Below, piece after piece: positions 24,043 to 41,761 of a stretch of 64,000 nucleotides of DNA; within the stretch, counting starts at the first letter, position 1; each line of letters opens with the position of its first letter. The notes under the pieces are model-generated. The model made no database searches, was not told the origin of the DNA, and saw only the letters and a list, made by a program, of their open reading frames with translations. The position numbers and the translations under genes were made by a program. Source of the DNA: an uncultured SAR116 cluster alpha proteobacterium (lineage in GTDB: Bacteria; Pseudomonadota; Alphaproteobacteria; Puniceispirillales; Marisalimonadaceae); contig CACNFD010000004.1 of assembly GCA_902619615.1 (NCBI GenBank), positions 51,275 to 115,274 of the forward strand, in the 5' to 3' direction.

Positions 24043-25182
24043 CTATGCATTTGGCACTAGGATCTGTCTAACAACTTCACCCTTTGACAATTTATCAAAA
24101 CCTTCATTCAAGTTATCAAATGTAATTTTGCCATCTATAAGCTTATCTACTGGTAAACGTCCTTGTTTATATAAGTTTAAAAATCTAGGTACATCTCTTA
24201 CAGGAACACATGAACCCATATAGCTTCCTAAAATTGATTTTTCCTGTGCAACTAAATCACTATGATTAAAACTAAATTGAGTATTTATTGGCGATAAACC
24301 AGCAGTAACCACAGAACCCCCATATCTTATTATTTGATAAGCGGTATCCATGGCTTGTATTACCCCAGCTAGATCAATAGCATAGTCAACACCACCATTT
24401 GTTAAATCCCTTATTTCTTCAACCATATTATTGTTTCTACTATCAAAACAATGTGTTGCACCAAGTTCTTCTGCTCTACTAAATTTTGATGGATCAATAT
24501 CAACTGCAATTATAGTTTCAGCTCCTGCTAGCTTTGCACCAATTATACCATTTAGCCCTACACCTCCTAATCCAATAATTGCGACTGAATCTCCTGGTCT
24601 TATTCTAGCAGTATTAATTACAGCGCCGACACCAGTCATAACAGCACACCCAAAAAGAGCTGCATCTTCAATATTAAAGGCTTTATCAATTACAACTACA
24701 GATCCCCTATCAACTACATTATATTGAGACATACATGAAATCCCAGTATGGTGATTAAGCCTATTACCCTCCATATCTGTCAATCTGCTTCCACCTGACA
24801 TTAAATCACCTTTACCTTTTGTTGCAGCTGCGAGTTCACATACTTGAGGTCTTCCTTCAAGACATCTTCTACATCTTCCACAAGATGGTGAAAATTGAAA
24901 TGCAACATGATCTCCAACTTTTATGTCTTTTACAGCACTTCCCAACTCAACCACTTCACCAGAACCTTCATGGCCAATTACTAATGGCAAGGGCATTACT
25001 CTGGATCCATTTATAACTGATAAGTCAGAATGACAGAGACCAGCACCCATAACCTTCACAAGCACTTCATTTTCGAGAGGAGGTGATATATGGATTTCCT
25101 CAATAGATAGTGGCTTAGAGTCTTTATATGGGGCAATTAATTTATTATTTCTAATAACTGCAGCTTTACATTTAATTGACAT
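24043..25182 (-). CDS. Zn-dependent alcohol dehydrogenase (class III-like, 379 aa)
   Basis: Catalytic Zn ligands GLCHSDLS and GHEGSG, structural Zn loop CGRCRRCLEGRPQVC, Rossmann GLGGVG. Confidence 0.85.
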   Translation of the reverse strand: MSIKCKAAVIRNNKLIAPYKDSKPLSIEEIHISPPLENEVLVKVMGAGLCHSDLSVINGSRVMPLPLVIGHEGSGEVVELGSAVKDIKVGDHVAFQFSPSCGRCRRCLEGRPQVCELAAATKGKGDLMSGGSRLTDMEGNRLNHHTGISCMSQYNVVDRGSVVVIDKAFNIEDAALFGCAVMTGVGAVINTARIRPGDSVAIIGLGGVGLNGIIGAKLAGAETIIAVDIDPSKFSRAEELGATHCFDSRNNNMVEEIRDLTNGGVDYAIDLAGVIQAMDTAYQIIRYGGSVVTAGLSPINTQFSFNHSDLVAQEKSILGSYMGSCVPVRDVPRFLNLYKQGRLPVDKLIDGKITFDNLNEGFDKLSKGEVVRQILVPNA

Positions 25183-25542
25183 TTAAACACTCCTATTTTT
25201 AATATTTACCGGTTTCCCATGAGGTGTAGACAAATAAGCTTGAGTCCAGTCTTCTTTTAATAGCATCAAAGTATCTTTATTACTTACTTTTTTTATAATG
25301 AGGATTTCCTCAAGGGCATTTAACCAACAAGAAAAATAATCATTACTACCATCTAAGTTTTTTGTGAGTAATCTTTGTTTTTTTAGAGACTCTCCAAAAA
25401 CTTCTACAAACTCTTTCCAGCTGAAATTTCCTTTTTCTGACATTTGAACTGTAATGGCAAATAATTGACTATGCCAAGGATTTTGGAAAACAATTTGATC
25501 TTCAGTTTTATTTGTAAAAGGTAAATTATAATCAGATTTCAT
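25183..25542 (-). CDS. nitrile hydratase accessory (activator) protein
   Basis: 119 aa. VFQNPWHSQLFAITVQMSEKGNFSWKEF matches the beta-subunit-like NHase accessory family. It lies directly downstream of the NHase beta gene. Confidence 0.75.
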   Translation of the reverse strand: MKSDYNLPFTNKTEDQIVFQNPWHSQLFAITVQMSEKGNFSWKEFVEVFGESLKKQRLLTKNLDGSNDYFSCWLNALEEILIIKKVSNKDTLMLLKEDWTQAYLSTPHGKPVNIKNRSV

Positions 25543-25558
25543 TTTTATCTTTTTAAAA

Positions 25559-26299
25559 TTAATGTGGAAAAAGTTTTAGGTATGGTTCCCACAAGTCTAA
25601 GAGGATACCGTCATTTTCATTCTCGGCCAATTCTCCCCATATCTCTGAAGCCTTAAACTCTACAGTATACAATGGTAAGGGGTTCTCTCCTAAACTATGA
25701 GCATTTTTATCAGGAAAAACATGATTATTGTTGTAAGAATGAATAACACCCACCCTTCCCATAGCATATTTTGGCAAACGAGTGTGTCCACCACTAATAT
25801 CTTTATTTGGACTATAATTTTGTGTAATAACTTTGTCACCTATATCAAAAACTGGACTTATATTTATATCTCTAACAGATGGGCCTCCCCAACCTAGTGT
25901 TTTCTGGACATCTTTGGCTAACCAGGTTCTATGATCAAGTTTTATATCGTTATCAGAAAATTTTTTTAAAGTTCCATTCTCGGCGGCATAAACATAATCT
26001 TTTAATTCACTTATTGAAATAAGTTCTTTATCAATTAAAAGATTAGTAAGAGCTGCTAACCATTTTTCGTAATAAGAAAAATTTACATAATCTTTTGGCG
26101 GTAAACATTCTCTATAATGACGACTAATATCTAGATTCCATTCTCCTAATGCTCCAGCAGCTAGAGTAATCGCCCATGCTTTTGCATGCCATTCATATTT
26201 GAAGGTTGGTTCAAGGTTAATTACTTCATTTTTATCATCTCTTGGAATAGGAATTGATCCATCACCAAAACGACCACCCATGTCATGCAATCTGCTCAT
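25559..26299 (-). CDS. nthB: nitrile hydratase beta subunit
   Basis: Begins [12 protein letters not shown] and carries [12 protein letters not shown] and [10 protein letters not shown]. Its start overlaps the alpha stop (ATGA). Confidence 0.88.
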
Positions 26300-26937
26300 T
26301 TTATTTCCTTTGGTAATCCAGTACCTATCATTGAATTTCTAGTAACTAATTCTGCAAGTTCACTTTCATTCATTTTTTCAGTACCTTTAGGCCTCATTGG
26401 TAATACCAAATATCTTATTTCAGCAGTTGAGTCCCATACCTTTATCTGAACTTTTGGATCTAATGATAAACCAAATTCTAAAAGAACTTTTCTAGGTTCT
26501 CTAACTGTTCTAGATCTATATTCATCACTTTTATACCAAGTTGGTGGAATGCCAAGGACTGGCCATGGATAACAACTACATAATGTACAGACTATTACAT
26601 TGTGAATTTCAGGTGTATTTTCTACTACAACCATATTTTCACCTTGTCTACCTTGGTAACTCAATTCTCTAATTGCTGAAGTAGCATCAGTCAAAAGTCT
26701 TTTTTTATATTCTGGATCTACCCACGCTTTAGCAACCACATTTGCACCATTTTTTGGGCCTATTCGATTTTCATAAGTATCAATCAATTCATCTAAAGTT
26801 TTAGAAACTATTAATCCTTTGTTTAAAAGTAAAGTCTCTAAGGCTTTTACTCTTAATTCAGGATCAGATGGTAAATGTGAATGAGCATGATCATCTGCAT
26901 GATGATGATCTTCAACTATATTTTTCTTTTCACTCAT
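26296..26937 (-). CDS. nthA: nitrile hydratase alpha subunit, cobalt type
   Basis: Metal claw [10 protein letters not shown], where Thr and Tyr mark the Co-type (Fe-type has S..T). RVKALETLL and [12 protein letters not shown] are also present. Confidence 0.9.
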
Positions 26938-26964
26938 AATTCAATCTCTTTTTTAATCATATTT

Positions 26965-28011
26965 CTAATCTGGAATTAAAACAATTCTACCATTAACTTT
27001 ACCTGATCTTAAATCAGACATTGCTTGATTTGCTGTCTCTAAACCTTGTTTTTTTACTGGTATTAGTTTTATTTTCCCAGATTTAATAATATTAACAAGT
27101 TCTTTTAATTCTCTTAACTCTCCTACATAAGAACCTCTAAGCGTCATTGATCTCATTGGTACCAATGGTAGTGATAGTTTTAGCGAGCCACCATATAAAC
27201 CTACCACTATTACCATTCCACCTTTTTTTACTAATGTTAGACCCAAGTCACTCGTTTCAGGTCTACCAACAAAATCTATAGCCGCAGAAGCTCCAATTCC
27301 AATTTTATTTCTAATTTCAGTTTCTTCGTCTGGTGAGAAAGCTTCATTTGCACCAGCCTCAATAGCTTTTTTCCTCTTCTCTGGATCATTGTCTATTACT
27401 AAAATTTTTGCTTGGTGTATTGCAGGTGATAATAAAATACCATTTATGCCAACACCACCTGCACCAATAATTATAATCCAATCATCTTTTGAAGTTGTAG
27501 GAATTTTTTTTAAAGCACTAAATGCAGTTAGACCTGAACATGCGTATGGTGCCGCTTGCGCAGGATCCATATCACCGTAAGAAACTATATATTTACTATG
27601 AGGTACAATTATATGATCAGAATAGCCTCCATCAAGACGAGCACCTAAATATTTAGGAGCCTCACATAATGTTTCATTATTTTCTAAACAAGCTGTACAT
27701 TTTCCACAACCAATCCACGGAAATACTATTCCAGCGTCACCTATTTTAATATCTTTTATATCCTCACCTAAAGCTACTACAGTTCCAGTAATCTCGTGTC
27801 CTGGGGTAAATGGTAATTTAGTGCCCCTGTCAGCCAAAGTTATTCTTTTTCCATCTCCTAAATCAAAATAACCATCTGCCAAATGAAGATCACTATGACA
27901 AACACCACAAGCTGTAATCTTTACAAGAACTTCATCTCCTTTAGGTTGTGGATTTTCATATTCCCTTAATTCTAAAGGTTCACCAAACTCAATAACCTGA
28001 TAACTCTTCAT
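26965..28011 (-). CDS. Zn-dependent alcohol dehydrogenase (348 aa)
   Basis: GVCHSDLH, GHEITG, structural Zn loop CGKCTACLENNETLC, Rossmann GAGGVG. Confidence 0.85.
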   Translation of the reverse strand: MKSYQVIEFGEPLELREYENPQPKGDEVLVKITACGVCHSDLHLADGYFDLGDGKRITLADRGTKLPFTPGHEITGTVVALGEDIKDIKIGDAGIVFPWIGCGKCTACLENNETLCEAPKYLGARLDGGYSDHIIVPHSKYIVSYGDMDPAQAAPYACSGLTAFSALKKIPTTSKDDWIIIIGAGGVGINGILLSPAIHQAKILVIDNDPEKRKKAIEAGANEAFSPDEETEIRNKIGIGASAAIDFVGRPETSDLGLTLVKKGGMVIVVGLYGGSLKLSLPLVPMRSMTLRGSYVGELRELKELVNIIKSGKIKLIPVKKQGLETANQAMSDLRSGKVNGRIVLIPD

Positions 28012-28038
28012 TATAGAATTCTCCCCATCTAAAAATTA

Positions 28039-28911
28039 TCAACTTCTTTTTGAAGTTTCGTACTTGCTTGATATTTCATAATAATCATCAAATCCAATTT
28101 TTTGTCTTAAATCATTAAAATCTAGTAATAACTCGGATCTATCTTCATCTTTAATTAGTAAATTTAATGAGTTTATCATTGCTTTCATTGCTGAACTCAT
28201 AATGGTAAGTGGATAAACGGCAAGTTTATAACCAATTTCTGTCAATTCTTCCATGGATAAATTTGGTGTAATACCTCCCTCAACAATGTTAGCTATTTTA
28301 ACACCAGGAATTTCTTTACATATTGTTCTCATTTCTTCTTTGTTTTTTGGAGCCTCAACAAACATGATATCTGCCCCAAGTTCATAAAATTTTTGTGATC
28401 TTAATATTGCCTCACTCAGACCATGAGTATGATTGGCATCTGTTCTGGCCATAATTAAAATATCATAACCTTCATTTCTCATATCAGTAGCTGCTCTTAT
28501 TCTATCAAATGCCTCCTCACGATTTACCACATCCTTTCCTGGAGTGTGACCACAACGCTTGGGCGCTAATTGATCTTCAATCAATATGCCAGCACAACCT
28601 GCCTTGGCACATTCTTTCAATGTTCTACGAACGTTCATGGCATTTCCATAACCAGTGTCCCCATCTACTATCATTGGTATATCAATTGCGTTACAAATAT
28701 TGTTTGCTTGGTCAAAAACTTCTGAGAAGGTCATAAGCCCAAGATCTGGAGATCCTATCCTAGAGGCGGACGCAGCAAAACCTGACATAAAGGTTACATC
28801 AAAATTTGCTTGTTGTATTAATTTTGCAGATAAAGCATCAAAACAAGACGGTATTGGAATAAAAGGTTTTTCTTTTAAAATCTTTCTTAAATTATCAGGC
28901 TTACTTATCAT
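28039..28911 (-). CDS. isocitrate lyase/PEP mutase superfamily enzyme (methylisocitrate-lyase / oxaloacetate-decarboxylase-like)
   Basis: DGDTGYGN and IEDQLAPKRCGH (the lyase-type K-R-C-G-H loop). Confidence 0.8.
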   Translation of the reverse strand: MISKPDNLRKILKEKPFIPIPSCFDALSAKLIQQANFDVTFMSGFAASASRIGSPDLGLMTFSEVFDQANNICNAIDIPMIVDGDTGYGNAMNVRRTLKECAKAGCAGILIEDQLAPKRCGHTPGKDVVNREEAFDRIRAATDMRNEGYDILIMARTDANHTHGLSEAILRSQKFYELGADIMFVEAPKNKEEMRTICKEIPGVKIANIVEGGITPNLSMEELTEIGYKLAVYPLTIMSSAMKAMINSLNLLIKDEDRSELLLDFNDLRQKIGFDDYYEISSKYETSKRS

Positions 28912-28959
28912 TTTATTTCTTTATATATAAGTCCTATAAATCTTAGTATTAAGAATTAC

Positions 28960-31257
28960 TTAAGCTAAGTTAAAGCCTAGTTTACTTATGTTACCAGAGT
29001 CAATTGTAAACTCTGTCAAAAGTTCTTTTATGTTGCCAGTTTGTCCAAAACGATCAACACCGAGTGGTATTACTTTATGACCAAGTACAGAGCCTAACCA
29101 AGATAATGTTAGTTGGTGACCATCAATCACCGTCAAAATTTTAGTGTCTCTTGGAATTTCTTTTAATAAACTTTCAGCATGAGATTCAATTGTATTTTGA
29201 TTTGAAGATAATTGTTTATTTTTCCAATCATCTAACATTCTATCAGAACTCGTAATAGCTAAAACTCCAATATCTCTAAATTTTTCTCCTAAAATTGTTG
29301 TTGCTTCTATTATCTCTGTAGCAATGACACCTTGATAAGCTAGTATAATTTCTGGATTTGATCCAGGTTCCTTCAACCAATATCCTCCTTTTAAAACTTG
29401 ATCTTTAAAATCGTTTGTTAATTCTCTATATGGTTGTTCTATAGATCTTGTACTTAGCCTTATGTAAACAGAACCACCATTTTCATCCTGCAAATAATTA
29501 AAGCTATAATTCAAGATTATTGACAATTCATCTGCAAACGCTGGCTCAAAACTTAAAAGGCCTGGCTGACTGATCCCAGTTAATGGTGTTCCTATAGATT
29601 GATGTGCACCGCCCTCTGGCGCTAGGGAAACACCAGAGGGAGTTCCTACAATTATAAATCTTGCATCTTGATAACATGCATAATTCAAAGCATCTAATCC
29701 TCTAGCAATGAATGAGTCATATACAGTCCCTATTGGGAACAATCTTTCATTAAATAATTCATGAGAAAGACCAGCAGATCCAAGCATTATAAATAAATTC
29801 ATTTCAGCAATACCAAGCTCTATATGCTGTCCATCTGAAGAAAAAACCCACTTTTGAGCTGATGGTATTTTCCGATCTTTAAATATATCAGAAGTATCTT
29901 TTCTACTGAATAATCCTTTTTTATTTATCCAAGATCCAAGATTAGTGGAAACCGATACATCGGGTGATGTGGTTAAAATTCTTTGGGTAAATTCAGTATT
30001 GTTTTTTGCATAAGAGTCTAGAATTTTTCCAAACGCACTTTGAGTAGATATTTTATTATCATTTATCAATACAAGTTCATCAATTACTACTTTATTTCCA
30101 CTAAATTTTCTATGACCTGCTTTTTGAAAAGGAAGTTTTTTGATATATTCGTGAATGTTTAATTTGGTTTTTTCATCGGAAAAATTATTCCATTCCTCAC
30201 CATCATTAATTTCTAATTTAGATTTAAAATCATTCATTTGAGCTTTAGTCATAAGACCAGCATGATTGTCTTTATGGCCCGCTAATGGAGTGCCCCACCC
30301 TTTAATTGTATATGCAATAAATGCAGTAGGTTTATCATCTTTTATATTGTTAAATGCTTCACATAACGTTGAAATACAGTGACCACCTAAATTTGACATT
30401 AATTCTAAAAAATCAGAATCAGATCTTTTGTTAATTAATTTTGAAACCTCAGATTGATCGCCAATATCATCTAAGATTCTTTTTTTAAAAACTTCACCAC
30501 CTTCAAATGTCAAAGCTGAATATAATTGATTGGGACAATCATCAATCCATTTTTTTAATTTATTTCCACCAGGCTCTTTAAATGCTTCCTCTTGTAATTT
30601 TCCATATTTTAATACCACAAGGTTCCAATCAAATGCTGAAAAAACAGAACTTAGTCGCTCTGAAAGTCCTTCATGAACAACACCATCAAGTGACTGCCGA
30701 TTATAATCAATTATCCACCAAACATTTCTTAAATCATGTTTCCAACCTTCTTGAAGACACTCATAAACATTACCCTCATCTAGCTCTGCATCACCAACTA
30801 ACGCAATCATTCTCCCTAAAGGTTTATTTTTATAAAATTTTTTTCTTGCAACATAATCCTGAATTAGAGAAATAAAACTTGTCATTGCGACACCCAAACC
30901 TACTGATCCAGTTGAAATGTCAACATCGTCTATATCTTTTGTTCTAGACGGGTATGACTGTGCTCCGCCAAAACCTCTAAAATTTTCAATTTTTTCTTTA
31001 GTTTGTAATCCGGATAAATACTGAATAGCATGAAATACAGGACTAGCATGAGGTTTAACTGCAACTCTATCCTCTGGCCTTAAAATATTAAAATATAAAG
31101 CTGTCATTATTGAAACAATTGATGCAGAACTTGCTTGATGACCACCAACTTTAAGGCTATCTTGATTTTCTCTAATATGATTTGCATTATGGATCATCCA
31201 ACAAGCAAGCCACAAAACTTTCTTTTCAATTTTTTTTAAAATATCAACATGATTCAT
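28960..31257 (-). CDS. stand-alone AceE-like (homodimeric 2-oxoacid dehydrogenase E1 / transketolase-fold) ThDP-dependent enzyme
   Basis: 765 aa. GGHQASSAS is near the N-terminus, the ThDP motif is GDAELDEGN...IIDYNRQSLDG, and a Pyr-domain EMN-type region (IAEMNL) is present. Confidence 0.75.
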   Translation of the reverse strand: MNHVDILKKIEKKVLWLACWMIHNANHIRENQDSLKVGGHQASSASIVSIMTALYFNILRPEDRVAVKPHASPVFHAIQYLSGLQTKEKIENFRGFGGAQSYPSRTKDIDDVDISTGSVGLGVAMTSFISLIQDYVARKKFYKNKPLGRMIALVGDAELDEGNVYECLQEGWKHDLRNVWWIIDYNRQSLDGVVHEGLSERLSSVFSAFDWNLVVLKYGKLQEEAFKEPGGNKLKKWIDDCPNQLYSALTFEGGEVFKKRILDDIGDQSEVSKLINKRSDSDFLELMSNLGGHCISTLCEAFNNIKDDKPTAFIAYTIKGWGTPLAGHKDNHAGLMTKAQMNDFKSKLEINDGEEWNNFSDEKTKLNIHEYIKKLPFQKAGHRKFSGNKVVIDELVLINDNKISTQSAFGKILDSYAKNNTEFTQRILTTSPDVSVSTNLGSWINKKGLFSRKDTSDIFKDRKIPSAQKWVFSSDGQHIELGIAEMNLFIMLGSAGLSHELFNERLFPIGTVYDSFIARGLDALNYACYQDARFIIVGTPSGVSLAPEGGAHQSIGTPLTGISQPGLLSFEPAFADELSIILNYSFNYLQDENGGSVYIRLSTRSIEQPYRELTNDFKDQVLKGGYWLKEPGSNPEIILAYQGVIATEIIEATTILGEKFRDIGVLAITSSDRMLDDWKNKQLSSNQNTIESHAESLLKEIPRDTKILTVIDGHQLTLSWLGSVLGHKVIPLGVDRFGQTGNIKELLTEFTIDSGNISKLGFNLA

Positions 31258-31379
31258 TTCTTTACTGTAGCATCTTTCAAATGGAATGAATGACTAAATA
31301 TTATAAAAATACTTCTAAATTTAATATTATCTGCTAATATAAATATATTAGTAAAATATTATATTAAAATAGGTTTTGT

Positions 31380-31847
31380 TTGAGCAATATTGACAAAATA
31401 GATCAAAAAATTATTTTTTTTCTTCAGCAAAATGGTAAGTTAACTAATTTTGAGTTAGCTGAAAAAGTTGGCTTGTCACCATCTCCTTGCTTACGAAGAG
31501 TAAAAACCTTGGAGCAAAAAGGTTTAATAGCTGGATACACAGCTATTATTGATGAAATTGCTTTTGGTTATCCAGTAACTGCTTTTGTGTCTGTTAGATT
31601 AGAGAATCAAACAGATCAAATTTTAAAGTCATTTGAAAAAGAAATAACATCTTTAGATGCTGTTATGGATTGTTGGTTAGTAACTGGAAATAGAGATTAT
31701 TTATTAAGAGTTGTTGCAACTGACTTAAAAAACTATGAAATCTTTATGAGAGAAGAACTCACAAAGGTTAAAGGTATTGCATCAATAGAAACAAATTTTG
31801 CGCTAGGAAGAGTTAAGACAATAAATACCTTACCTATAAATTATTAA
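31380..31847 (+). CDS. Lrp/AsnC family transcriptional regulator
   Basis: TTG start. HTH LTNFELAEKVGLSPSPCLRRVKTLEQKGLI plus a C-terminal RAM/AsnC_trans_reg domain. It is divergent from the NHase operon. Confidence 0.88.
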   Translation: MSNIDKIDQKIIFFLQQNGKLTNFELAEKVGLSPSPCLRRVKTLEQKGLIAGYTAIIDEIAFGYPVTAFVSVRLENQTDQILKSFEKEITSLDAVMDCWLVTGNRDYLLRVVATDLKNYEIFMREELTKVKGIASIETNFALGRVKTINTLPINY

Positions 31848-31867: not shown

Positions 31868-32773
31868 TTGATAAAGAATTTAAAAAATATAAATGCTGGA
31901 GATTTAAATGTAAGCTACTTTGAGGCGGGTTCAAGAAAAGGTTTACCTGTAATACTTCTTCATGGCTTCCCATACGATATTCACGCTTACAAAGAAGTAG
32001 TTCCGTTATTAATGTCAAGCTGTAGAATAATTATTCCTTACTTAAGAGGGTATGGACACACATTTTTTTTACAAAATGATACGATACGTTCAGGTCAACA
32101 AGCAGCACTTGGATTTGACTTGTTGAAACTTATGGATGCACTTAAAATAGATAAAGCAATTTTAGGGGGATATGATTGGGGTGGCAGGGCAGCTTGCATA
32201 GTTGCTGCACTATATCCAAATAGATGTTTAGGTTTAGTTTCCTGCAACGGCTACAATATTCAAGACATAAAAAAATCATTAATACCAGTTAAGCCAGAAA
32301 TTGAACAAAAATTATGGTATCAATATTTTTTCCATAGTGAAAGGGGGCGAAATGGTCTTTTAAATCAACGTCATGATTTTATAAAATTTATATGGAAAAC
32401 ATGGTCACCAACTTGGAATGTTAATAATAATTTATATAATTTAAGTGCTAATGCTTTTGAGAATCCTGATTTTGTAGAAGTAGTCATTCATAGTTACCGT
32501 CATAGATTTGGACTGGTATGTGGCGACAAAAAGTTTGAAAAAATAGAAAAGAAATTATCTAACCAGCCTGTTATTTCTGCGCCTGCCATAACAATTGATG
32601 GTGATAATGACGGCGTGACCGGATTATCTGATATTGCAAAAATTAAACAAAAATTTTCAAGTCATCTTAAACATGAAATTCTTCCAAATATTGGCCATAA
32701 TGTGCCTCAGGAGGACCCTAAAAATTTTTCCGAAGCCATATTACATATAATGAGGATTCACAAAAATTTATAA
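31868..32773 (+). CDS. alpha/beta hydrolase, epoxide hydrolase / haloacid dehalogenase-like (Asp nucleophile)
   Basis: HGFP oxyanion motif, GGYDWGG elbow with Asp in the nucleophile position, and a C-terminal His in GHNVPQE. There is no early ATG, so a TTG start is assumed. Confidence 0.7.
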   Translation: MIKNLKNINAGDLNVSYFEAGSRKGLPVILLHGFPYDIHAYKEVVPLLMSSCRIIIPYLRGYGHTFFLQNDTIRSGQQAALGFDLLKLMDALKIDKAILGGYDWGGRAACIVAALYPNRCLGLVSCNGYNIQDIKKSLIPVKPEIEQKLWYQYFFHSERGRNGLLNQRHDFIKFIWKTWSPTWNVNNNLYNLSANAFENPDFVEVVIHSYRHRFGLVCGDKKFEKIEKKLSNQPVISAPAITIDGDNDGVTGLSDIAKIKQKFSSHLKHEILPNIGHNVPQEDPKNFSEAILHIMRIHKNL

Positions 32774-33976
32774 ATTCGCAATCTTTGTGGGTACTCCAAA
32801 TTCTTTTCTACATATTATAGCCAAACGTTTAATGCCCTCATCAATTTCTTTAATTGAAGGATTACCAAAGCAAAGTCTCATTTTATGTCCACCACTTTTG
32901 TTAATTGACCATTCATTTCCTGGATTTATAGCCACACCATCTTTTAATGCCAATTCGTAAAGACGAGATGTGTCTACTTTTTTATGCATATCAACCCAAA
33001 CAAAAATTCCACCATCAGGTTTTTTATATTCAGCAGAAGATCCAAAATATTTATCCAAAGCATTACAAATAGCCTCTGATTTTTTTTGCAATTTATTTTT
33101 TAGTGTTTTGACATGTGAATTAAAATTTTCCGTACAAAACTCTGCCAGTGCCATTTGTTCTAATGATCCGCTACCAGCATCAGTTTTATAAGGTAATATT
33201 CTTGATAAAACATCCCAATTTGCAATTAAATACCCAACTCTAAGTGCAGGTGCAATTGATTTAGAAAAAGATCCACAGTAAGTTACATATCCTTCTTTAT
33301 CAAATGACTTAATCGCAGGGGGTCTTTCTTTTTCAAAAAGAAGATCTGCGTAACAATCATCTTCAAAAATTGGTATTTGATATTTTTTTGATAATTTTAT
33401 TAGTTGCTTCCTTTTAGCAACAGACATTACTGTTCCAGTAGGGTTTTGAATTGTTGGGATCGTGTAAATATATCTTGGGATTATTTCTTTTTTCTGAAGA
33501 TCATTTAACTCTTGCTCTAGGATTTTTAAATTCATTCCGTCTTTTTCTAAAGGTATTCCGACCATATTTACACCAAGTCTTCTTAGCCTTGAAATAGTTC
33601 CTCCATAATTTTCCTCTTCAATTATTACTGTATCCCCTTTTCTAAGGAATGTCTGGTTTACAAGATCTAAAGCTTGCAATGAACCAGAAAGAACTAATAT
33701 CTCTCTTTCGGAGCAATTAATTTTTGAACTAATTTTCAATTGATTTGATATAAATTTTCTTAATGGTAAAAAGCCCTGAGGACCACTTTCTAGTCCATAT
33801 TTAGCTAAAGTTTTTCCCTCTTTTAATATTATTTTATTGAGAGAGTCCTTTATAGATTGCACAGGGATACTATCACTATCAATATGCCCTCCTACAAAAT
33901 TGTATTTTGGAAAACCTTTCCATTCCACTGCTGGTTTTAGAGCATCTAAATGTAAAAAATTATTAATGTTAAACAT
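32768..33976 (-). CDS. PLP-dependent aminotransferase, class I/II (2-aminoadipate/MocR-like subgroup)
   Basis: 402 aa with NPTG and SFSKSIAPALRVGY (PLP lysine). Confidence 0.8.
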   Translation of the reverse strand: MFNINNFLHLDALKPAVEWKGFPKYNFVGGHIDSDSIPVQSIKDSLNKIILKEGKTLAKYGLESGPQGFLPLRKFISNQLKISSKINCSEREILVLSGSLQALDLVNQTFLRKGDTVIIEEENYGGTISRLRRLGVNMVGIPLEKDGMNLKILEQELNDLQKKEIIPRYIYTIPTIQNPTGTVMSVAKRKQLIKLSKKYQIPIFEDDCYADLLFEKERPPAIKSFDKEGYVTYCGSFSKSIAPALRVGYLIANWDVLSRILPYKTDAGSGSLEQMALAEFCTENFNSHVKTLKNKLQKKSEAICNALDKYFGSSAEYKKPDGGIFVWVDMHKKVDTSRLYELALKDGVAINPGNEWSINKSGGHKMRLCFGNPSIKEIDEGIKRLAIICRKEFGVPTKIANL

Positions 33977-35280: not shown

Positions 35281-36057
35281 TTATCCGGCCTTTTCTATAT
35301 TCCCACAAACACTTACAGCTTGACCAGAAATATTTTTCCCAAGAGGACTACACAAAAAATGAGCTTGCTCTGCTAAATCTTCGTGAGTTACAAATCTATT
35401 CAATGATGCACCAGATAAAATTTCGTCTCTCATTACTTCGAAAGATACTTTTTTAACTTTAGCCTTTGCATCAATAACTCGGTTTTGTCTCTCGCCTTCA
35501 ACAATACCTGGTAAAAGTGCATTTGCTCTTATACCCCGAGGACCTAGTTCAATTGCTAAACTCTTCACCATGCCTATAACCGCCCATTTTGTAGCTGCGT
35601 ACGGTATTCTGTAAGCAAAGCCAACTCTACCAGCAACAGAAGATACCGACAGAATTGATCCATCGTTATTCATACGTGGAACAACTAGTCTCATTGTTTC
35701 AAAATGACTAGTAATATTAACTTGTAAACACTCTTGCCAACCTCCTAGCGTTTGCTCACCAACACCAGCTGTCTCTCCTGCAATCCCAGCATTATTTACT
35801 ATAATGTCAATTTCTTTTAGGTAATCAAACCCGGCTTCAACCATAGATGAGATCAATTGGGTTTGCCTAAGGTCACATACAACTGCTTTAATATTATCAT
35901 TAACATCATTGACTTTGTTCACAGCTTCAGGATTAATATCACATACAAAGACTTTGGCTCCTGCTTTTTCAAATCTTTTAGCTATTGCATAACCAATCCC
36001 ATCAGCTCCAGCTGTTATAAGAGCTTTTTTACCTTCAAGAAGTTTTTCGTAGTTCAT
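35281..36057 (-). CDS. short-chain dehydrogenase/reductase (classical SDR)
   Basis: TAGADGIG cofactor motif, NNAG, and catalytic YAATK. Confidence 0.85.
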   Translation of the reverse strand: MNYEKLLEGKKALITAGADGIGYAIAKRFEKAGAKVFVCDINPEAVNKVNDVNDNIKAVVCDLRQTQLISSMVEAGFDYLKEIDIIVNNAGIAGETAGVGEQTLGGWQECLQVNITSHFETMRLVVPRMNNDGSILSVSSVAGRVGFAYRIPYAATKWAVIGMVKSLAIELGPRGIRANALLPGIVEGERQNRVIDAKAKVKKVSFEVMRDEILSGASLNRFVTHEDLAEQAHFLCSPLGKNISGQAVSVCGNIEKAG

Positions 36058-36067
36058 TTTTAACTTT

Positions 36068-37000
36068 CTAATTTATGTTAGTATTATTTTTTCCTTTTAG
36101 CCCTAACATTTGTCTTGCTTCATCAGGTGTAGCAATCTCCAGTGAAAGTCCTTCTAGGATTTCTCTTACCCTTTTTACTTGATCAGCATTTGTCTTAGCT
36201 AAATTACCTGGACCGTCCCATAGAGAATCTTCAAGACCAACACGCACGTGAGAACCTAAAGAAGCACCAGTTGCATTCATCCTCATTTGAGTTGCTCCAG
36301 CACCGACAACTGACCACTCATAACCTACTTCACCAAATAATTTATCAGCTGTTTTTTTCATATGTAATAAATTGTCAGCATCAGCACCAATACCACCCAT
36401 TATTCCCATAACAAATTGAATAAAGTAAGGACCTTTTAACATACCTTCTCTATGAAAATAATGAAGATTATATAAGTGACCAACATCATAACATTCAAAC
36501 TCAAATTTAGTTTCATTTTCATAACCAAATGTCATTATGTTTTCAATATCTTCAAAAGTATTTTTAAAAAGAGAATACTTACTTTTCTCAAGCATTTCTT
36601 TTTCCCAAGGGTGTTTTAACTGATTATGTCTTTTAAGCATCGGAAAAAGCCCGAAATTCATAGATCCCATATTTAATGAAGCAAGTTCTGGTTTAAAATG
36701 CATTGCAGGCTTCATTCTCTCTTCCACTGTCATTTGTGGACCACCTCCAGTTGTAATGTTTATCACTGCATCACAAGAGTTATGAATGGTTGGTAGAAAT
36801 TTTTGAAATTCTTCCGGATCTTGAGTTGGGTGGCCATCATCCTCATCTCGTGCATGCAAATGCAAGACAGCAGCACCAGCTTCATGTGCTGCTAATGAAT
36901 GTTCAATAACTTCTTCTGCCGTCACCGGTAAAAACTCTGACATTGAAGGTGTATGTATCGCTCCTGTTACTGCACAGCTGATAATTACTTTTTTAGCCAT
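36068..37000 (-). CDS. BKACE family beta-keto acid cleavage enzyme (3-keto-5-aminohexanoate cleavage enzyme family, DUF849)
   Basis: 310 aa TIM-barrel protein: ISCAVTGAIHTP, Zn site LHLHARD, and a C-terminal VGLEDSL. Confidence 0.85.
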   Translation of the reverse strand: MAKKVIISCAVTGAIHTPSMSEFLPVTAEEVIEHSLAAHEAGAAVLHLHARDEDDGHPTQDPEEFQKFLPTIHNSCDAVINITTGGGPQMTVEERMKPAMHFKPELASLNMGSMNFGLFPMLKRHNQLKHPWEKEMLEKSKYSLFKNTFEDIENIMTFGYENETKFEFECYDVGHLYNLHYFHREGMLKGPYFIQFVMGIMGGIGADADNLLHMKKTADKLFGEVGYEWSVVGAGATQMRMNATGASLGSHVRVGLEDSLWDGPGNLAKTNADQVKRVREILEGLSLEIATPDEARQMLGLKGKNNTNIN

Positions 37001-37936
37001 TTAAATATCCTCTCCTAATTCAGATTTAAGCTTTCTAATTAATGCAATCATTTTATTTCTTTTTTCTACTCTATTATCCCTTTGATCATAAGATAATCTT
37101 TTTCTTTGATCCATTTCTAATTTATTTAAATATTCTTCTGAATATTCAGGAACACTATTTTGCTCCTTAGCTAAATTTTGTATACCTTTTTTATATCGAG
37201 TAAAAGAATCTTTGATACCCTCTGGTGCATTTAAATCCATAATCTCAAAGGGACCCATGAATGCCCACCTTATACCTAATGCATGTTTTAAAGCTATATC
37301 GATATCTTCCATAGAAGCAAACCCTCCTTCGTGAAGTCTAACTGCTTCGTTAAGAAGAGCACCCTGCAATCTATTTAAAACAAAACCTTCTGCCTCTTTA
37401 TTTATAGTAATAGCTGCATATTTAGCTTTTTTGTATATTGAGACAGCTTGTTTAATAATTTTTGGGTCGGTATCCACCCCACCTGAAACTTCAACAAATG
37501 GGACAATGTGAGGAGGCAAGGCGGGATGTGCGTTGATACATCTATGTTTGTGTTTTACAAGCTCTGAAATTCTAGAAATCAGAAGATAAGATGAAGATGA
37601 TGCAATAATTGTATTTTCTGGAGTCAATTTATCTAATTGTGCAAACACTGATTTTTTTAGCTCTAAATCCTCTGACACACTTTCTTGAACTAAGATTGAA
37701 TCATTGCAAGTTTCTTCAATAGTACAGTTCAACTTTATGTTAGAACTTATCTTTTCTTCATCTGTTTCAGGGTTAATGATACGTAAATCTTGGATTAATT
37801 TATTCGCTAAATCTTTAAATTTTGTAAAACTATCTTCACTTTTGTCATAAACAAAACATTTAAAACCAGAATTAGCAAAACCTATTGCCCAGCTTGCTCC
37901 AATTAGACCAGCACCACAGATGCCAATTTTATCCAT
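37001..37936 (-). CDS. 3-hydroxyacyl-CoA dehydrogenase family protein, L-carnitine dehydrogenase-like
   Basis: I prefer ATG 37936 (MDKIGICGAGLIGASWA, Rossmann). The track's 8 extra codons (to 37960) are the U-tract and 3' stem arm of the terminator hairpin after dctM. The gene abuts the BKACE gene at 37000/37001. Confidence 0.8.
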   Translation of the reverse strand: MDKIGICGAGLIGASWAIGFANSGFKCFVYDKSEDSFTKFKDLANKLIQDLRIINPETDEEKISSNIKLNCTIEETCNDSILVQESVSEDLELKKSVFAQLDKLTPENTIIASSSSYLLISRISELVKHKHRCINAHPALPPHIVPFVEVSGGVDTDPKIIKQAVSIYKKAKYAAITINKEAEGFVLNRLQGALLNEAVRLHEGGFASMEDIDIALKHALGIRWAFMGPFEIMDLNAPEGIKDSFTRYKKGIQNLAKEQNSVPEYSEEYLNKLEMDQRKRLSYDQRDNRVEKRNKMIALIRKLKSELGEDI

Positions 37937-37946
37937 ATTAAATCCC

Positions 37947-37977
37947 AAAAAAAACCGCATCTTTCAGATGCGGTTTT
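37947..37977 (-). terminator. rho-independent terminator/attenuator between dctM and the dehydrogenase gene
   Basis: Perfect inverted repeat AAAACCGCATC-TTTCA-GATGCGGTTTT. On the minus strand the GC-containing stem is followed by a T8 run. Confidence 0.6.
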
Positions 37978-37987
37978 CATTAACTTG

Positions 37988-39379
37988 CTAAATTAGCCGC
38001 GGAAGCCATAATGCCATTTCTGGTTGATAAATAACAAATCCTAGACCAATCAATTGTATAATAACAAAGGGTACCACTCCTCTATATATGCTTAAAGTAG
38101 CAACTTCTGGAGGGGCAACCCCTTTCAAATAAAACAAGGCGAAACCAAATGGTGGTGTAAGAAATGAGGTTTGGAGATTTATAGCCATTAAAACTAAAAA
38201 CCAAACCAATGTTTCTTTACGCCCATCAAGACCAGTTAATTGGGATACATGATCTCCAAAATCTAATAGAACAACCAATGGAGCAAAAATTGGTAAAATG
38301 ATAAGAGTTATTTCAACCCAATCTAAAAAGAATCCAAGTAAAAATGTCATTCCCATTAATAAAAACAATAAACCCCAAGATCCAAGACCTGCTTTTTCTA
38401 TTAATTCCTCAACAATATAATCGCCACCAAGTGATCTGAATACATAGGCAAAACAAGTTGCACTTAAAATAATCATAAACACCATTGCAATCGTAAGACC
38501 TGAAGAGTGTAAAACACTTCTCAACATTGGGAGTGTAAACTTATTACCTATTATAGCTAGAAAAGTTGCACCAAATGCACCTACAGCTCCAGCCTCACTA
38601 GGTGTAGCCCAACCAAGTAAAATTGAACCTTTTATGAGTGTAATCAAAGCAACAGGTGGCAAAAATGCTTTTAAAACCATTTGTGGCAATCTACCTTTTT
38701 CATATTGAAGCTCACCTTCATTTACAGCAGGGGCAACATTTCTATCAATAGAACACCACACAAAAATAAATATTAAATACATTAAGGCTAGTGTTAATCC
38801 TGGAATAACTGCACCCATGAACAGATTTCCAACAGAAACTTGCATAATATCAGCCATAATAATCAACATAATACTTGGAGGAATTAAAATACCTAATGTT
38901 CCAGAGGCAGCAATTACTCCTGTTGAAAGCGCATGACTATATTTATTTCTTAACATTGTTGGTAATGCTAATGCTGTCATCATTGTAACCGACGCTCCAA
39001 TGATACCTGTCATAGCAGCTAACACAGTACCCATGACAGTCACTGACATCGCAAGACCACCGGGAACTTTTCTTAGTAAAATTTGGGTTGTTCTTAATAA
39101 ATCATTAGCAATACCACTTCTTTCCATCATAGTACCCATAAATACAAAGCTAGGTATGGCAACTAATATTAAGTTTTCAGCAGAAAATCCCCACATTCTA
39201 GGAACAAAATTAAAAAATTCTGCAATTTTAAACACTCCAAATAGATAACCAATAAATCCATAAGTTATTGCTACTCCACCAAGTATAAACCCAACAGGAT
39301 ATCCTATGAATAAAAGTATCCCCATCGTCAGAAACATAAAAATTGGCAGATATTCTATGATAATATCAACAAAATCCAT
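37988..39379 (-). CDS. TRAP transporter large permease subunit (DctM family)
   Basis: 463 aa polytopic membrane protein with typical DctM composition and length. Confidence 0.88.
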   Translation of the reverse strand: MDFVDIIIEYLPIFMFLTMGILLFIGYPVGFILGGVAITYGFIGYLFGVFKIAEFFNFVPRMWGFSAENLILVAIPSFVFMGTMMERSGIANDLLRTTQILLRKVPGGLAMSVTVMGTVLAAMTGIIGASVTMMTALALPTMLRNKYSHALSTGVIAASGTLGILIPPSIMLIIMADIMQVSVGNLFMGAVIPGLTLALMYLIFIFVWCSIDRNVAPAVNEGELQYEKGRLPQMVLKAFLPPVALITLIKGSILLGWATPSEAGAVGAFGATFLAIIGNKFTLPMLRSVLHSSGLTIAMVFMIILSATCFAYVFRSLGGDYIVEELIEKAGLGSWGLLFLLMGMTFLLGFFLDWVEITLIILPIFAPLVVLLDFGDHVSQLTGLDGRKETLVWFLVLMAINLQTSFLTPPFGFALFYLKGVAPPEVATLSIYRGVVPFVIIQLIGLGFVIYQPEMALWLPRLI

Positions 39380-39387
39380 AACTACAC

Positions 39388-39864
39388 CTATGCTTTCTCA
39401 TTTTTAATATTATAATTTTCAAATTCTCCAGTATATCTCTGCCAAGCAACTATCCTTGAAATTCTCCATCCATATTTAAGTGAGAGAAGAAACAAACAAA
39501 CAAAAATAGTCATTGTTAATAAAGAAGAATTTTTTGCAAGAGCATCATAGAAACATAACCCTACTATCACTGATGGAGCTAAAGCAATTATGTAAGATGA
39601 AATTAATTCATATTTACGTATAACGCTAAATATCGAATAGATTACTGAAACTGAAGCAAATAACCAAAAATAGTAAATCAAATTATTACTTTCTAAAATT
39701 GATAGAATAGCAGCCAGTCCAATTATTCCATAAATCGTTCCAACAAAAACACCATAAGCAGCCAATTCATATTGTGATTGGGCTAAAGTTAAGTTCTTAG
39801 CCTCAATTAAATAAGGAGTTTTTTGTTTATCAAATATATAACCAGGAACTTTTGAAAACCACAT
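39388..39864 (-). CDS. four-TM membrane protein of unknown function encoded inside the TRAP operon
   Basis: 158 aa with four hydrophobic segments. It lies 8 nt upstream of dctM and 39 nt downstream of dctQ. No family recognised. Confidence 0.5.
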   Translation of the reverse strand: MWFSKVPGYIFDKQKTPYLIEAKNLTLAQSQYELAAYGVFVGTIYGIIGLAAILSILESNNLIYYFWLFASVSVIYSIFSVIRKYELISSYIIALAPSVIVGLCFYDALAKNSSLLTMTIFVCLFLLSLKYGWRISRIVAWQRYTGEFENYNIKNEKA

Positions 39865-39903
39865 TGCTTATCTCATAGATATTTTAACAGAGGAATTTTG
39901 ATC

Positions 39904-40515
39904 TTATTTAGTTTTATCATAATCAAGTACCATAAGATCAAGTTTCTTTTTATTATCGCCCCATATAACTGCAATTAATTGTATCATAACTGACAAACCG
40001 CCAAGAAAAAGGAAGAAATATCCAATAGGCAGAAATGTTTTAATAATCCATCTGTTACTTAAACCAACTAGCGAGGCGGATACCTCATTAATCACATAAG
40101 AATCTACCATGTAAATCCAAGAAAAATAAACACATATAAGTGTAAATGGAAGCATGAAGAAAATATTACCATAAAATTCAACTTTTGCCTTAGATCGAAA
40201 GTTAAAGTTTTCTCTAAGAAAATCGACTCTTACATGCCTGTTATGAGTGTAACCATAACCTAAAACCAGACAAAAAACGACTGTGTGAAGGTGCCATTCC
40301 ATTTCTTGCATTAATGTTGATTCAAAAAATGAACCAAAATTTTGGACCATAAATATTTGTATCCAAACTAATTTTCTAGCAACAACATCCCACATTGTTA
40401 TTATAACTAGGGGAACTAAAAGCCAAGTACTGGCTCTACCAACTCTATTTACAAGTTCACGAAGCTTTTCACTTAATGAAATGAGACCTTCCATGTTTTG
40501 TTCTGTAAGTGCCAT
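39904..40515 (-). CDS. TRAP transporter small permease subunit (DctQ family)
   Basis: 203 aa with 4 TM helices, located between dctP and dctM. Confidence 0.8.
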   Translation of the reverse strand: MALTEQNMEGLISLSEKLRELVNRVGRASTWLLVPLVIITMWDVVARKLVWIQIFMVQNFGSFFESTLMQEMEWHLHTVVFCLVLGYGYTHNRHVRVDFLRENFNFRSKAKVEFYGNIFFMLPFTLICVYFSWIYMVDSYVINEVSASLVGLSNRWIIKTFLPIGYFFLFLGGLSVMIQLIAVIWGDNKKKLDLMVLDYDKTK

Positions 40516-40589
40516 TATTCTCCCCCAGAATACCTAATCTCTATTAAATTTAATTAGCTTATTAAATACAAAATTTCAATTTATTTATC

Positions 40590-40630
40590 AAAAAAAAAGT
40601 ACACTTGTTAGATAAAATAACAAGTGCACT
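40590..40630 (-). terminator. rho-independent terminator/attenuator after dctP
   Basis: The minus-strand RNA AGUGCACUUGUUA-UUUUAUC-UAACAAGUGUACU forms a 13-bp stem followed by U9. The one non-Watson-Crick position is G.U on the minus strand but A.C on the plus strand, which supports minus-strand function. Confidence 0.65.
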
Positions 40631-40647
40631 TATATGTTTATAAAGAA

Positions 40648-41706
40648 TTAGTACTTTTTAGCTTTTAGATAAGCTCTTGAAGACCAAATACTGTAGTCCT
40701 CTCTAAACTTGTTATAGCTTGCAGTAATTTCTTTGAAAAGAGGGTCAGAAGCTGACTTCTCCTCAACAACAGCATCCCAAGCTTTCTTAAACTTGGAGAT
40801 TTCTGAGTCAGGCCATGTTACGAATGTAACACCTTTTTTCTCGAGTTCTGCCATAGCAGGAACTTGCTTAGCATCGGATCTAACTAATGCCCACCACATT
40901 GTGTCACGACATGCTGTATTGATAACAGCTTGTTGTGTCTTAGTTAAACCACCCCATCCTTTGGTGCTCATCAATAGCTCACCAATTGATGTTTGCTGGT
41001 GCCAACCTGGGAAATAGTTAAATTTAGCTAACTGATAGAAACCATAACTTAAGTCGTGTGTAGGCATAGAAAATTCTGTTGCATCAATAACACCTTTTTC
41101 TAGAGCTGGGTAAATATCTCCACCAGCAAGTAACTGTGTTGACACACCTAATTTACTCATAACCATAGCACCAAGACCGAAGAAACGCATTTTCATGCCT
41201 TTCAACTCTTCAACATTGTTGATTTTCTTTCTAAACCAACCTGATGTCTCAGGAGCGTGAGTTAAACAGTTAAGAGCTTTAAGGCCATACTCACCATAAA
41301 TTCTGTCTTTTAACTGCTGACCTCCGCCATATTCCATCCAACCATGGTACTCACTAGCACCTGGACCAAAAGGAACAGCTGTGAAGTAAGAAACTGCAGG
41401 GATTTTACCAGCATGGTAACCTGGTGTTGTATAACCTGCATCAACTGATCCATTCTTAACAGCATCCCAAACTTCTAATGAAGGTACAAGAGCGTTTGGC
41501 TCGTGAAATCTCAACTGGACGTCGCCACCTGAAATTGACTTAACTTTGTTAGAAAAATAAACAGCAGCTTCACCATTAATAGCAACTTGGCTACCCCAAG
41601 TACTTTGCATTTTCCAACGTAGCTTATCAGCATTTGCTGAAACAGCTACTAAACTGGTTGCAGCTAAAGCTACAGCGCCTACGAATAGGCCAGATTTGAA
41701 TTTCAT
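40648..41706 (-). CDS. TRAP transporter solute-binding protein (DctP family, mannitol/chloroaromatic COG4663-like subgroup)
   Basis: GGGAGGA SD precedes ATG 41706. Signal peptide MKFKSGLFVGAVALAATSLVAVSANA, then HAGKIPAVSYFTAVPFG and WFRKKIN. Confidence 0.85.
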   Translation of the reverse strand: MKFKSGLFVGAVALAATSLVAVSANADKLRWKMQSTWGSQVAINGEAAVYFSNKVKSISGGDVQLRFHEPNALVPSLEVWDAVKNGSVDAGYTTPGYHAGKIPAVSYFTAVPFGPGASEYHGWMEYGGGQQLKDRIYGEYGLKALNCLTHAPETSGWFRKKINNVEELKGMKMRFFGLGAMVMSKLGVSTQLLAGGDIYPALEKGVIDATEFSMPTHDLSYGFYQLAKFNYFPGWHQQTSIGELLMSTKGWGGLTKTQQAVINTACRDTMWWALVRSDAKQVPAMAELEKKGVTFVTWPDSEISKFKKAWDAVVEEKSASDPLFKEITASYNKFREDYSIWSSRAYLKAKKY

Positions 41707-41761
41707 GAAATTCCTCCCTAGTATTATAAAAAAGGCTATTACCAAGAAATTTTAGAATTAC

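Follow-up and report, generated by a model that had tools for sequence, protein, structure and literature searches.

A cobalt-type nitrile hydratase between two alcohol dehydrogenase genes in low-GC SAR116 bacteria: one nitrile pathway or a mosaic of modules?

Do seven closely packed genes around a marine nitrile hydratase make up one route for the use of a nitrile, or do they belong to separate systems that share a stretch of chromosome? The question is raised by a 64,000-nucleotide stretch of an uncultured SAR116 alphaproteobacterial genome (contig CACNFD010000004.1, positions 51,275 to 115,274; hereafter the window), in which the genes for the alpha subunit, beta subunit and accessory protein of a nitrile hydratase (NHase) stand between genes for two zinc-dependent alcohol dehydrogenases (ADH1 and ADH2), with a C-C lyase and a thiamine diphosphate (ThDP) enzyme resembling AceE, the E1 component of pyruvate dehydrogenase, encoded on the same strand, and with an Lrp/AsnC-family regulator gene divergent upstream. 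An original prediction, made from the sequence alone, had the ADHs, the lyase and the ThDP enzyme acting on the nitrile-derived amide. That idea finds no support in region-wide synteny, in the turnover of the lyase gene and of tripartite ATP-independent periplasmic (TRAP) transporter genes among relatives, in the absence of NHase from all 83 loci with relatives of the ThDP enzyme, or in SAR202 genomes that carry the NHase genes only. The reading favoured here, which we hold to have about an even chance of being right, is that the string is a mosaic of separate modules and not one linear nitrile pathway, with the mosaic probably co-transcribed. The string and its regulator comprise the following features.

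24043..25182, minus strand: ADH2, zinc-dependent, class I/III-like (PF00107 and PF08240); its start abuts the stop of the accessory gene
25183..25542, minus strand: NHase accessory (activator) protein, a homologue of the beta-subunit N-terminal part (TIGR03889)
25559..26299, minus strand: NHase beta (TIGR03888); its start overlaps the alpha stop (ATGA)
26296..26937, minus strand: NHase alpha, cobalt-type, with the claw VCTLCSCY (TIGR01323)
26965..28011, minus strand: ADH1, zinc-dependent, medium-chain, AdhP- and Sulfolobus-ADH-like (PF08240 and PF00107)
28039..28911, minus strand: C-C lyase of the phosphoenolpyruvate (PEP) mutase/isocitrate lyase superfamily, an optional member of the string (PF13714 PEP_mutase; EDQLAPKRCGH)
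28960..31257, minus strand: AceE-like stand-alone ThDP enzyme of the homodimeric E1 type, 765 aa (TIGR00759, 172 bits)
31258..31379, no strand: divergent intergenic region, presumed to be a shared promoter/operator, 122 nt, AT-rich
31380..31847, plus strand: Lrp/AsnC-family transcription regulator, divergent from the operon (PF13412, PF01037 and PF13404)

The layout was predicted correctly. The window's list of open reading frames (ORFs) holds seven, all on the minus strand between 24043 and 31257, in the order E1-like enzyme, lyase, ADH1, NHase alpha, NHase beta, accessory protein and ADH2, separated in that order by 48, 27, 27, -4, 16 and 0 nt, and the Lrp gene starts divergently at 31380. 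Families were called by Pfam and NCBIfam profile searches, with the NCBIfam equivalog cut-offs applied, and all of the predicted assignments were upheld. NHase alpha passes the TIGR01323 model with 311.6 bits (cut-off 249.85), matches the structures 3qxe, 1v29 and 1ire at 246–284 bits, and carries the metal claw C-(T/S)-L-C-S-C in the form VCTLCSCY, whose Thr and Tyr mark a cobalt-type NHase. NHase beta passes TIGR03888 with 200.8 bits (cut-off 152.2) and has both its N- and C-terminal domains (PF21006 and PF02211); aligned to chain B of 1v29, it conserves the Arg of the ..SR.. motif, SYYEKW and GHTR, and we take the conserved beta Arg and Tyr to be the residues that contact the alpha claw. 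The accessory protein reaches 75.2 bits against TIGR03889 (cut-off 46), as a dedicated activator. Judged from its sequence, then, the NHase set of alpha, beta and activator is complete and canonical for the cobalt type. Thiocyanate hydrolase was considered and rejected, as alpha passes the NHase model and reaches only 197 bits against the thiocyanate hydrolase model (cut-off 291). At about residues 55–62 of beta (..LD[IVTK]SR..), a Ser stands next to the conserved Arg where the Bacillus smithii enzyme has Phe; this Ser is conserved across SAR116 and SAR202 copies (L002, L006, L020, L022, L042 and L060) and may make the substrate pocket smaller or more polar.

The partners of a classical nitrile-catabolic operon, i.e. 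a linked amidase, with or without a linked cobalt transporter or aldoxime dehydratase, are lacking, as had been predicted. Four amidase-signature queries were run by tblastn against the 64 kb window, 47 SAR116 loci and five SAR202 loci and gave no match in any of them, and six-frame translation of the window revealed neither a GGSSGG-type amidase motif nor the HxxDADH motif of Ni/Co transporters. Neither an aldoxime dehydratase nor a NiCoT/NhlF cobalt transporter was found among the approximately 20 window genes scanned with Pfam, the remaining genes having been read by eye only, and Pfam on the neighbouring genes returned only alpha/beta hydrolases, an aminotransferase and similar. An amidase beside the NHase genes is not universal, however: among 28 NHase loci from outside SAR116 and SAR202, only nine have an adjacent amidase-signature gene within the fetched flanks, the neighbours in the rest being MurJ, PAPS-reductase-domain proteins, unknown proteins and the like. 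A missing adjacent amidase is thus not unusual, and the classical layout reflects a few characterized strains. As a separate observation, the NHase loci of Arenicellales have a conserved ORF of approximately 400 aa directly upstream of NHase alpha (L052 8770–9957, L054 8744–9940, L057 8725–9939 and L058 8769–9971), two copies of which were tested and gave no Pfam match.

How far the string holds together was assessed through a genome scan with NHase alpha, which yielded 80 loci, against which all of the window proteins were scored. The closest genomes are single-cell and metagenome assemblies of SAR116, together with the cultured Ca. Levibacter, and the host is a member of the low-GC SAR116 subclade (Puniceispirillales; relatives of AAA536-G10 and Ca. 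Levibacter), a streamlined group of approximately 30 % GC tied to nitrogen-poor surface water (PMC8547437). An origin in Pelagibacterales, to which the prediction had pointed, is rejected, as every close locus is SAR116. The string is syntenic in 47 SAR116-type loci, with identity falling to 76–78 % for NHase alpha and to approximately 50 % for beta, and it also occurs in all three of the SAR116 contigs that were found by way of the E1-like gene instead of NHase. Conservation of the seven-gene set therefore stands for SAR116, some loci being without the lyase; recurrence in unrelated lineages does not, for none of the 28 NHase loci from elsewhere adjoins an E1, ADH or lyase gene. Moreover, the flanks are equally syntenic in the 47 loci, taking in YajQ, an Asp/Arg hydroxylase-like gene, two alpha/beta hydrolases and an aminotransferase, the last of these in every SAR116 locus including the three E1-chosen contigs. 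Because the flanking genes are as well conserved as the string, its conservation is region-wide synteny among close relatives, with a single evolutionary origin.

Within that synteny, some members come and go. In 12 SAR116 loci (L001, L011, L031, L041–L045 and L047–L050), no lyase gene stands between E1 and ADH1, and at least 18 SAR116 loci have a 2.9 kb TRAP transporter (DctP, DctQ and DctM) between E1 and the lyase, as do all three E1-chosen contigs. The seven genes of the window are therefore a cut-down version of a ten-gene string, and the turnover of lyase and TRAP genes supports the mosaic reading. Sequence and synteny of SAR116 type also appear under other taxon labels, namely L039 (3226 nt, Lewinella), L031 and L040 (Rhodobacterales) and L033 (Planktomarina); these labels are probably binning errors.

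The same pattern bears on the view that all seven genes form one dedicated route for a functionalized nitrile, in which NHase makes the amide, the ADHs, lyase and ThDP enzyme process the skeleton and no amidase is needed; in its ten-gene form, the substrate would be a carboxylated nitrile, e.g. a 2-oxo-acid cyanohydrin or a cyano-acid, that enters through the TRAP system. Such a route would account for the order E1-(TRAP)-lyase-ADH1-NHase-ADH2 being kept across deeply diverged SAR116, down to the approximately 50 % identity in NHase beta, and it accords with the failure to find an amidase within 64 kb and with the conserved Ser in the beta pocket of the SAR116 and SAR202 enzymes. Against this, the association has a single origin and is inseparable from the synteny of the whole region, and many carriers do without the lyase or TRAP genes, the TRAP genes being absent from the window itself.

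A sharper separation is provided by five SAR202 (Chloroflexota) genomes from independent studies, which carry alpha, beta and activator alone. Their NHase alpha genes share 83–87 % nucleotide identity with the window, as against 74–77 % for other SAR116 genera, and the cassette has a GC content of 0.33–0.35, compared with 0.37–0.45 in its flanks. The gene surroundings differ among the five genomes, with no amidase, ADH, E1 or lyase among them. Homology to the window extends from 16 nt before the ADH1 stop codon to 22 nt into ADH2, leaving a stub, ATGTCAATTA..TGTAAAGCTG, in cassettes at L006 4698–6524, L009 1357–3182 and L010 1190–3030 (equivalent to window 25161–26980). Because stubs of ADH1 and ADH2 flank the cassettes, the SAR202 copies evidently came from a SAR116-type operon, both ADH genes having been cut away after transfer. 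The cassettes of L006 and L009 are each enclosed by two direct repeats of the tRNA-Met(CAT) 3' part, with an entire tRNA-Met gene farther upstream (full gene and repeats at L006 205–279, 3516–3640 and 6529–6653; L009 312–386, 1268–1313 and 3182–3259). These repeats look like the mark of successive integration events at a tRNA gene, producing tandem, tycheposon-like islets; the fetched SAR202 DNA contains no integrase or replication module, and the window contains no tRNA gene. In Prochlorococcus, tycheposons bring nutrient-acquisition cargo cassettes to tRNA sites (10.1101/2020.12.28.424599). The SAR202 cassettes amount to a natural deletion experiment, in which the NHase genes were kept without their SAR116 neighbours, and the NHase cassette is autonomous and mobile. 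That SAR202 kept NHase alone and discarded both ADHs is a further point against a dedicated route.

The other end of the string is separable as well. The E1-like protein scores 172.1 bits against the AceE model TIGR00759 (model positions 73–844), below the cut-off of 859.9, and its best structural match is E. coli E1p (residues 80–847, 125 bits). It is without the first 70–80 or so residues of AceE, the N-terminal segment that serves docking on E2, and no lipoyl or 2-oxoacid_dh gene for an E2 or E3 component was seen when the window was read by eye. The ThDP/Mg motif GDG-X(25-30)-N is recognizable, with GDAELDEG...NRQSLD aligning to E. coli GDGEMDE...NLQRLD, and GDAELDEG...N is invariant in an alignment of the family. 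This family comprises 956 clusters at 50 % identity (E<=1e-30), its members being labelled just 'transketolase' or 'pyruvate dehydrogenase E1' in the source records, and no characterized member was found. Its gene contexts were examined in 83 loci, 80 from a metagenome scan with an alignment of intermediate relatives and three others, with E1 proteins 51–62 % identical to that of the window and a GC content of 0.42–0.72. Where enough upstream sequence is available, 28 of 69 loci, from unrelated metagenomic lineages, have an Lrp homologue (39–52 % identity) divergent from E1 as in the window; the pair was noted at L087 1094–1660/1771–4230, in L088 and in 28 of L089–L168. All 83 loci are without an NHase, and in no case do ADH1, ADH2 or the lyase adjoin E1. 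The next gene on the E1 strand encodes an aldehyde dehydrogenase in L100 (3253–4965), L105, L110, L111 and others, and in L086 a short-chain dehydrogenase/reductase (SDR) gene directly follows E1.

Lrp plus E1-like enzyme is thus an older, widespread unit that is independent of NHase. The recurrent pairing with aldehyde-active enzymes suggests that the E1-like enzyme may yield an aldehyde, which fits with the absent AceE N-terminus and the lack of a nearby E2 or E3 gene. Distant E1-like homologues in Chloroflexota (approximately 38 % identity) consistently have an AP_endonuc_2 (xylose-isomerase-like TIM barrel) gene upstream (L081 7137–7919, L082 681–1463 and L083 7181–7957); as a clue to the window locus, this context was set aside as uninformative. 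For a dedicated nitrile route, the independence of both ends is damaging, with E1 relatives linked to NHase in 0/83 cases and NHase relatives linked to E1, ADH or lyase in 0/28, and we know of no established, plausible ThDP chemistry on an alpha-keto-amide. With these points set against the conserved order, such a route is quite unlikely.

The remaining members of the string are of recognizable family and generic kind. The lyase matches PF13714 PEP_mutase at 150.5 bits and falls below the cut-offs for PrpB (TIGR02317, 253.8 bits; cut-off 354.4), PEP mutase (TIGR02320, 111.9 bits; cut-off 319.55) and carboxyPEP mutase; no prpC, prpD or phosphonate gene lies near it. Its gating loop K-(R/K)-C-G-H, with the catalytic Cys, places it on the lyase branch; the nearest structure is the petal death protein 1zlp (205 bits), and the best structural matches are all lyases. 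A phosphonate pathway (PEP mutase, decarboxylase and ADH) was accordingly rejected on the KRCGH lyase loop, the low PEP mutase score and the E1 type of the ThDP enzyme. ADH1, in which both zinc-site cysteine motifs are visible, is nearest to 2eer and 1jvb (219–230 bits), and ADH2 stays below the cut-offs both of TIGR03989 (318 bits; cut-off 440) and of class III formaldehyde dehydrogenase (265 bits; cut-off 544), with class I/III ADHs as its structural matches at approximately 250 bits; these PDB matches are generic ADHs and give no clue to the substrate of either enzyme. In L038 (5098–7901), the TRAP genes are 98–99 % identical at the amino-acid level to those of L008 (5156–7958), whereas the adjoining E1, lyase, ADH and NHase genes are 70–89 % identical; either the TRAP module has recently recombined between SAR116 genera or the assembly is a chimera.

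The TRAP genes enter into a further pathway proposal, namely that the ancestral ten-gene string (Lrp, E1-like enzyme, the three TRAP genes P, Q and M, lyase, ADH1, NHase set and ADH2) encodes an undescribed route that handles a carboxylated nitrile without an amidase. Binding proteins of the DctP type in TRAP systems normally recognize an organic anion, as this proposal would have it; the solved structures assign no specificity to the present binding protein (L008 5156–6151), the best matches, at approximately 110 bits, having mixed ligands and none being a close relative. The TRAP system would import the nitrile, NHase would hydrate it, and the lyase, ThDP enzyme and ADHs would dismantle the skeleton, with a 2-oxo-acid cyanohydrin formed from marine hydrogen cyanide, or a cyano-amino acid, as candidate substrates. 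We regard this proposal as very unlikely.

The mosaic reading distributes the same genes over three modules. Module 1, the oldest, is the Lrp regulator with the divergent E1-like enzyme, which would decarboxylate an amino-acid-derived 2-oxo acid; a free aldehyde (or acyloin) is the predicted product because the enzyme is without the E2-docking N-terminal segment of AceE. Interconversion of aldehyde and alcohol would fall to ADH1 and ADH2, in the manner of an Ehrlich pathway. Module 2, which is optional, consists of the TRAP transporter (lost in the window) and the petal-death-protein-like lyase; the transporter would import a carboxylate, and the lyase would cleave a 2-hydroxy acid to a 2-oxo acid that feeds module 1. 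In module 3, a standard cobalt NHase would hydrate a nitrile to the amide by itself, and the amide would be used directly or hydrolysed by an unlinked hydrolase. Several points weigh against this arrangement. NHase stands between the two ADHs in every SAR116 locus seen (47 + 3), and may be coupled to them there. The SAR202 genomes have E1-like homologues of their own elsewhere (P0466) that could supply partner functions in trans, and the Lrp gene is present in only 41 % of the assessable E1 loci. The E1 family could possibly act as a decarboxylase, as a carboligase or in dependence on an E2, a conserved His of the enzyme lying two residues off the position of E. coli His407 in the alignment. 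Lastly, an Ehrlich-type route that ends in an alcohol would be an odd investment for an aerobic oligotroph.

Whether the string is a transcriptional unit at all has also to be asked, since close packing would be expected of unrelated neighbours in so gene-dense a genome. Across the window, neighbouring genes on the same strand are separated by a median of 16.5 nt, 37 of 46 such gaps being at or below 50 nt, and its co-directional runs of 11, 7, 7, 6 and 6 genes include some made up of unrelated housekeeping genes. With close spacing and long same-direction runs so usual in this genome, packing says little about an operon and was rejected as evidence for one. No terminator-like site was found in any intergenic gap of the string, whose gaps do not exceed 48 nt, but gaps of that size are, again, the norm. 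In the divergent region (31258–31379), promoter matches are at consensus level only and not above chance, and an Rfam search detected no RNA element, riboswitches included, there or elsewhere across 22–34 kb. If the neighbours were unrelated, shared regulation and function would be confined to the three NHase genes; this would suit both the spacing and a region-wide synteny that takes in clearly unrelated genes, as well as the independent behaviour of the modules in other lineages. It sits less well with a string that has neither a terminator-like site nor a gap above 48 nt, with the alpha/beta overlap and the 0-nt accessory/ADH2 junction, which leave no room for a promoter outside coding sequence, and with the aldehyde-active dehydrogenases that follow E1 elsewhere and support at least an E1-ADH link. 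Taken together, mere adjacency is rather improbable.

A different unity might come from nitrogen and not from a shared carbon skeleton, i.e. a nitrogen-scavenging set under a feast/famine (Lrp) regulator, and here two genes beyond the regulator, given as context and of uncertain membership, become relevant.

31868..32773, plus strand: alpha/beta hydrolase (PF00561), 20 nt after the Lrp gene
32768..33976, minus strand: class I/II aminotransferase (PF00155)

In such a set, the aminotransferase, E1-like enzyme and ADHs would strip nitrogen from amino acids, the skeleton leaving as an alcohol, and NHase would give either a usable amide (e.g. asparagine from beta-cyanoalanine) or an amide for a housekeeping amidase. 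Amino acids are the typical signals of Lrp/AsnC regulators, the pairing of Lrp with E1 recurs widely, and the syntenic aminotransferase is a possible source of 2-oxo acid. The host belongs to a streamlined, low-GC subclade associated with nitrogen-poor surface water (PMC8547437), and the SAR202 cassette, as cargo at a tRNA-Met hot spot, recalls the nutrient-acquisition cassettes of Prochlorococcus tycheposons (10.1101/2020.12.28.424599). On the other hand, nothing seen ties the regulator to nitrogen status, no ammonia would be released without an amidase unless the amide itself is the metabolite, and the aminotransferase lies outside the operon, beyond the Lrp and hydrolase genes. We regard a nitrogen-scavenging set as unlikely. 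The hydrolase, which is haloalkane-dehalogenase/epoxide-hydrolase-like, is a candidate amide- or ester-hydrolysing partner; it is variable, being missing in L011, L033, L041–L049 and L060. Farther along the minus strand (35281–41745), the window has a cluster of an SDR, a beta-keto-acid cleavage enzyme (BKACE), a 3-hydroxyacyl-CoA dehydrogenase and a second TRAP system (DctM, DctQ and DctP), which is syntenic in SAR116 contigs L169–L171 and resembles carnitine or beta-keto-acid catabolic sets.

What is new in the locus is its gene context. The NHase itself is an ordinary member of the cobalt type, and NHases have been known since 2008 from every Global Ocean Sampling sample, where they form a large marine-only branch (PMC2603476). 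As predicted, no paper describing the gene set as part of a pathway was found: nothing in the literature searched links NHase to SAR116 or to a set of ADH, ThDP enzyme and lyase. Near-identical metagenomic proteins to the window NHase number in the thousands, and a very abundant marine NHase variant can now be assigned to hosts in the low-GC SAR116 subclade and in SAR202, together with a recent export of the bare NHase cassette to the latter. The cultured carrier Ca. Levibacter Uisw_134_01 (L060), which has a closed genome (PMC12509534), makes oceanic nitrile use testable, and a widespread, unnamed family of Lrp-paired E1-like ThDP enzymes is flagged for attention. If the mosaic reading is true, the claim of a novel pathway should stay out of annotation; if a carboxylated-nitrile route were true, one of the most abundant NHases of the surface ocean would be tied to a specific cyanide/nitrile biogeochemical sink.

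Among known systems, the cobalt-type NHase operons of Pseudomonas putida NRRL-18668, Bacillus smithii, Geobacillus pallidus and Pseudonocardia thermophila share with the window the CTLCSCY claw, the two-domain beta subunit, the small beta-like activator and translationally coupled genes, and the window proteins match solved structures strongly. The window differs from them in placing alpha, beta and activator between two zinc-dependent ADH genes, in lacking a linked amidase, cobalt transporter or aldoxime dehydratase, and in a beta subunit that is only moderately similar (approximately 117 bits) and has Ser for the B. smithii Phe by the conserved Arg. The aldoxime-nitrile clusters of Rhodococcus and Pseudomonas chlororaphis (oxd, NHase, amidase and acyl-CoA synthetase) likewise have NHase and activator under a nearby regulator, but their defining partners are absent here. 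With E. coli AceE, the E1-like enzyme has domain order and ThDP-binding motif in common, yet it belongs to a separate, widespread and unnamed family that is often paired with Lrp, with no E2 or E3 nearby. The lyase shares its KRCGH loop with the petal death protein, 2-methylisocitrate lyase and 2,3-dimethylmalate lyase (PDB 1zlp best, then 4iqd and 1mum), whereas it scores below the cut-offs of PrpB-type lyases, has no prpC or prpD neighbours and is optional in the string. An amino-acid-type regulator beside a ThDP 2-oxo-acid enzyme, followed by dehydrogenases, brings to mind Ehrlich-type decarboxylase and ADH routes and the control of branched-chain keto-acid dehydrogenase by the Lrp-type BkdR, a likeness drawn from layout only, as the window enzyme is of the E1p type and not of the pyruvate-decarboxylase/IlvB type. 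Finally, the SAR202 cassette, like tycheposon-type islands of Prochlorococcus (10.1101/2020.12.28.424599), is bracketed by partial tRNA-Met repeats after a full tRNA-Met; it differs from them in having no integrase or replication module in the DNA that was fetched, and the likeness holds for the SAR202 copies and not for the window.

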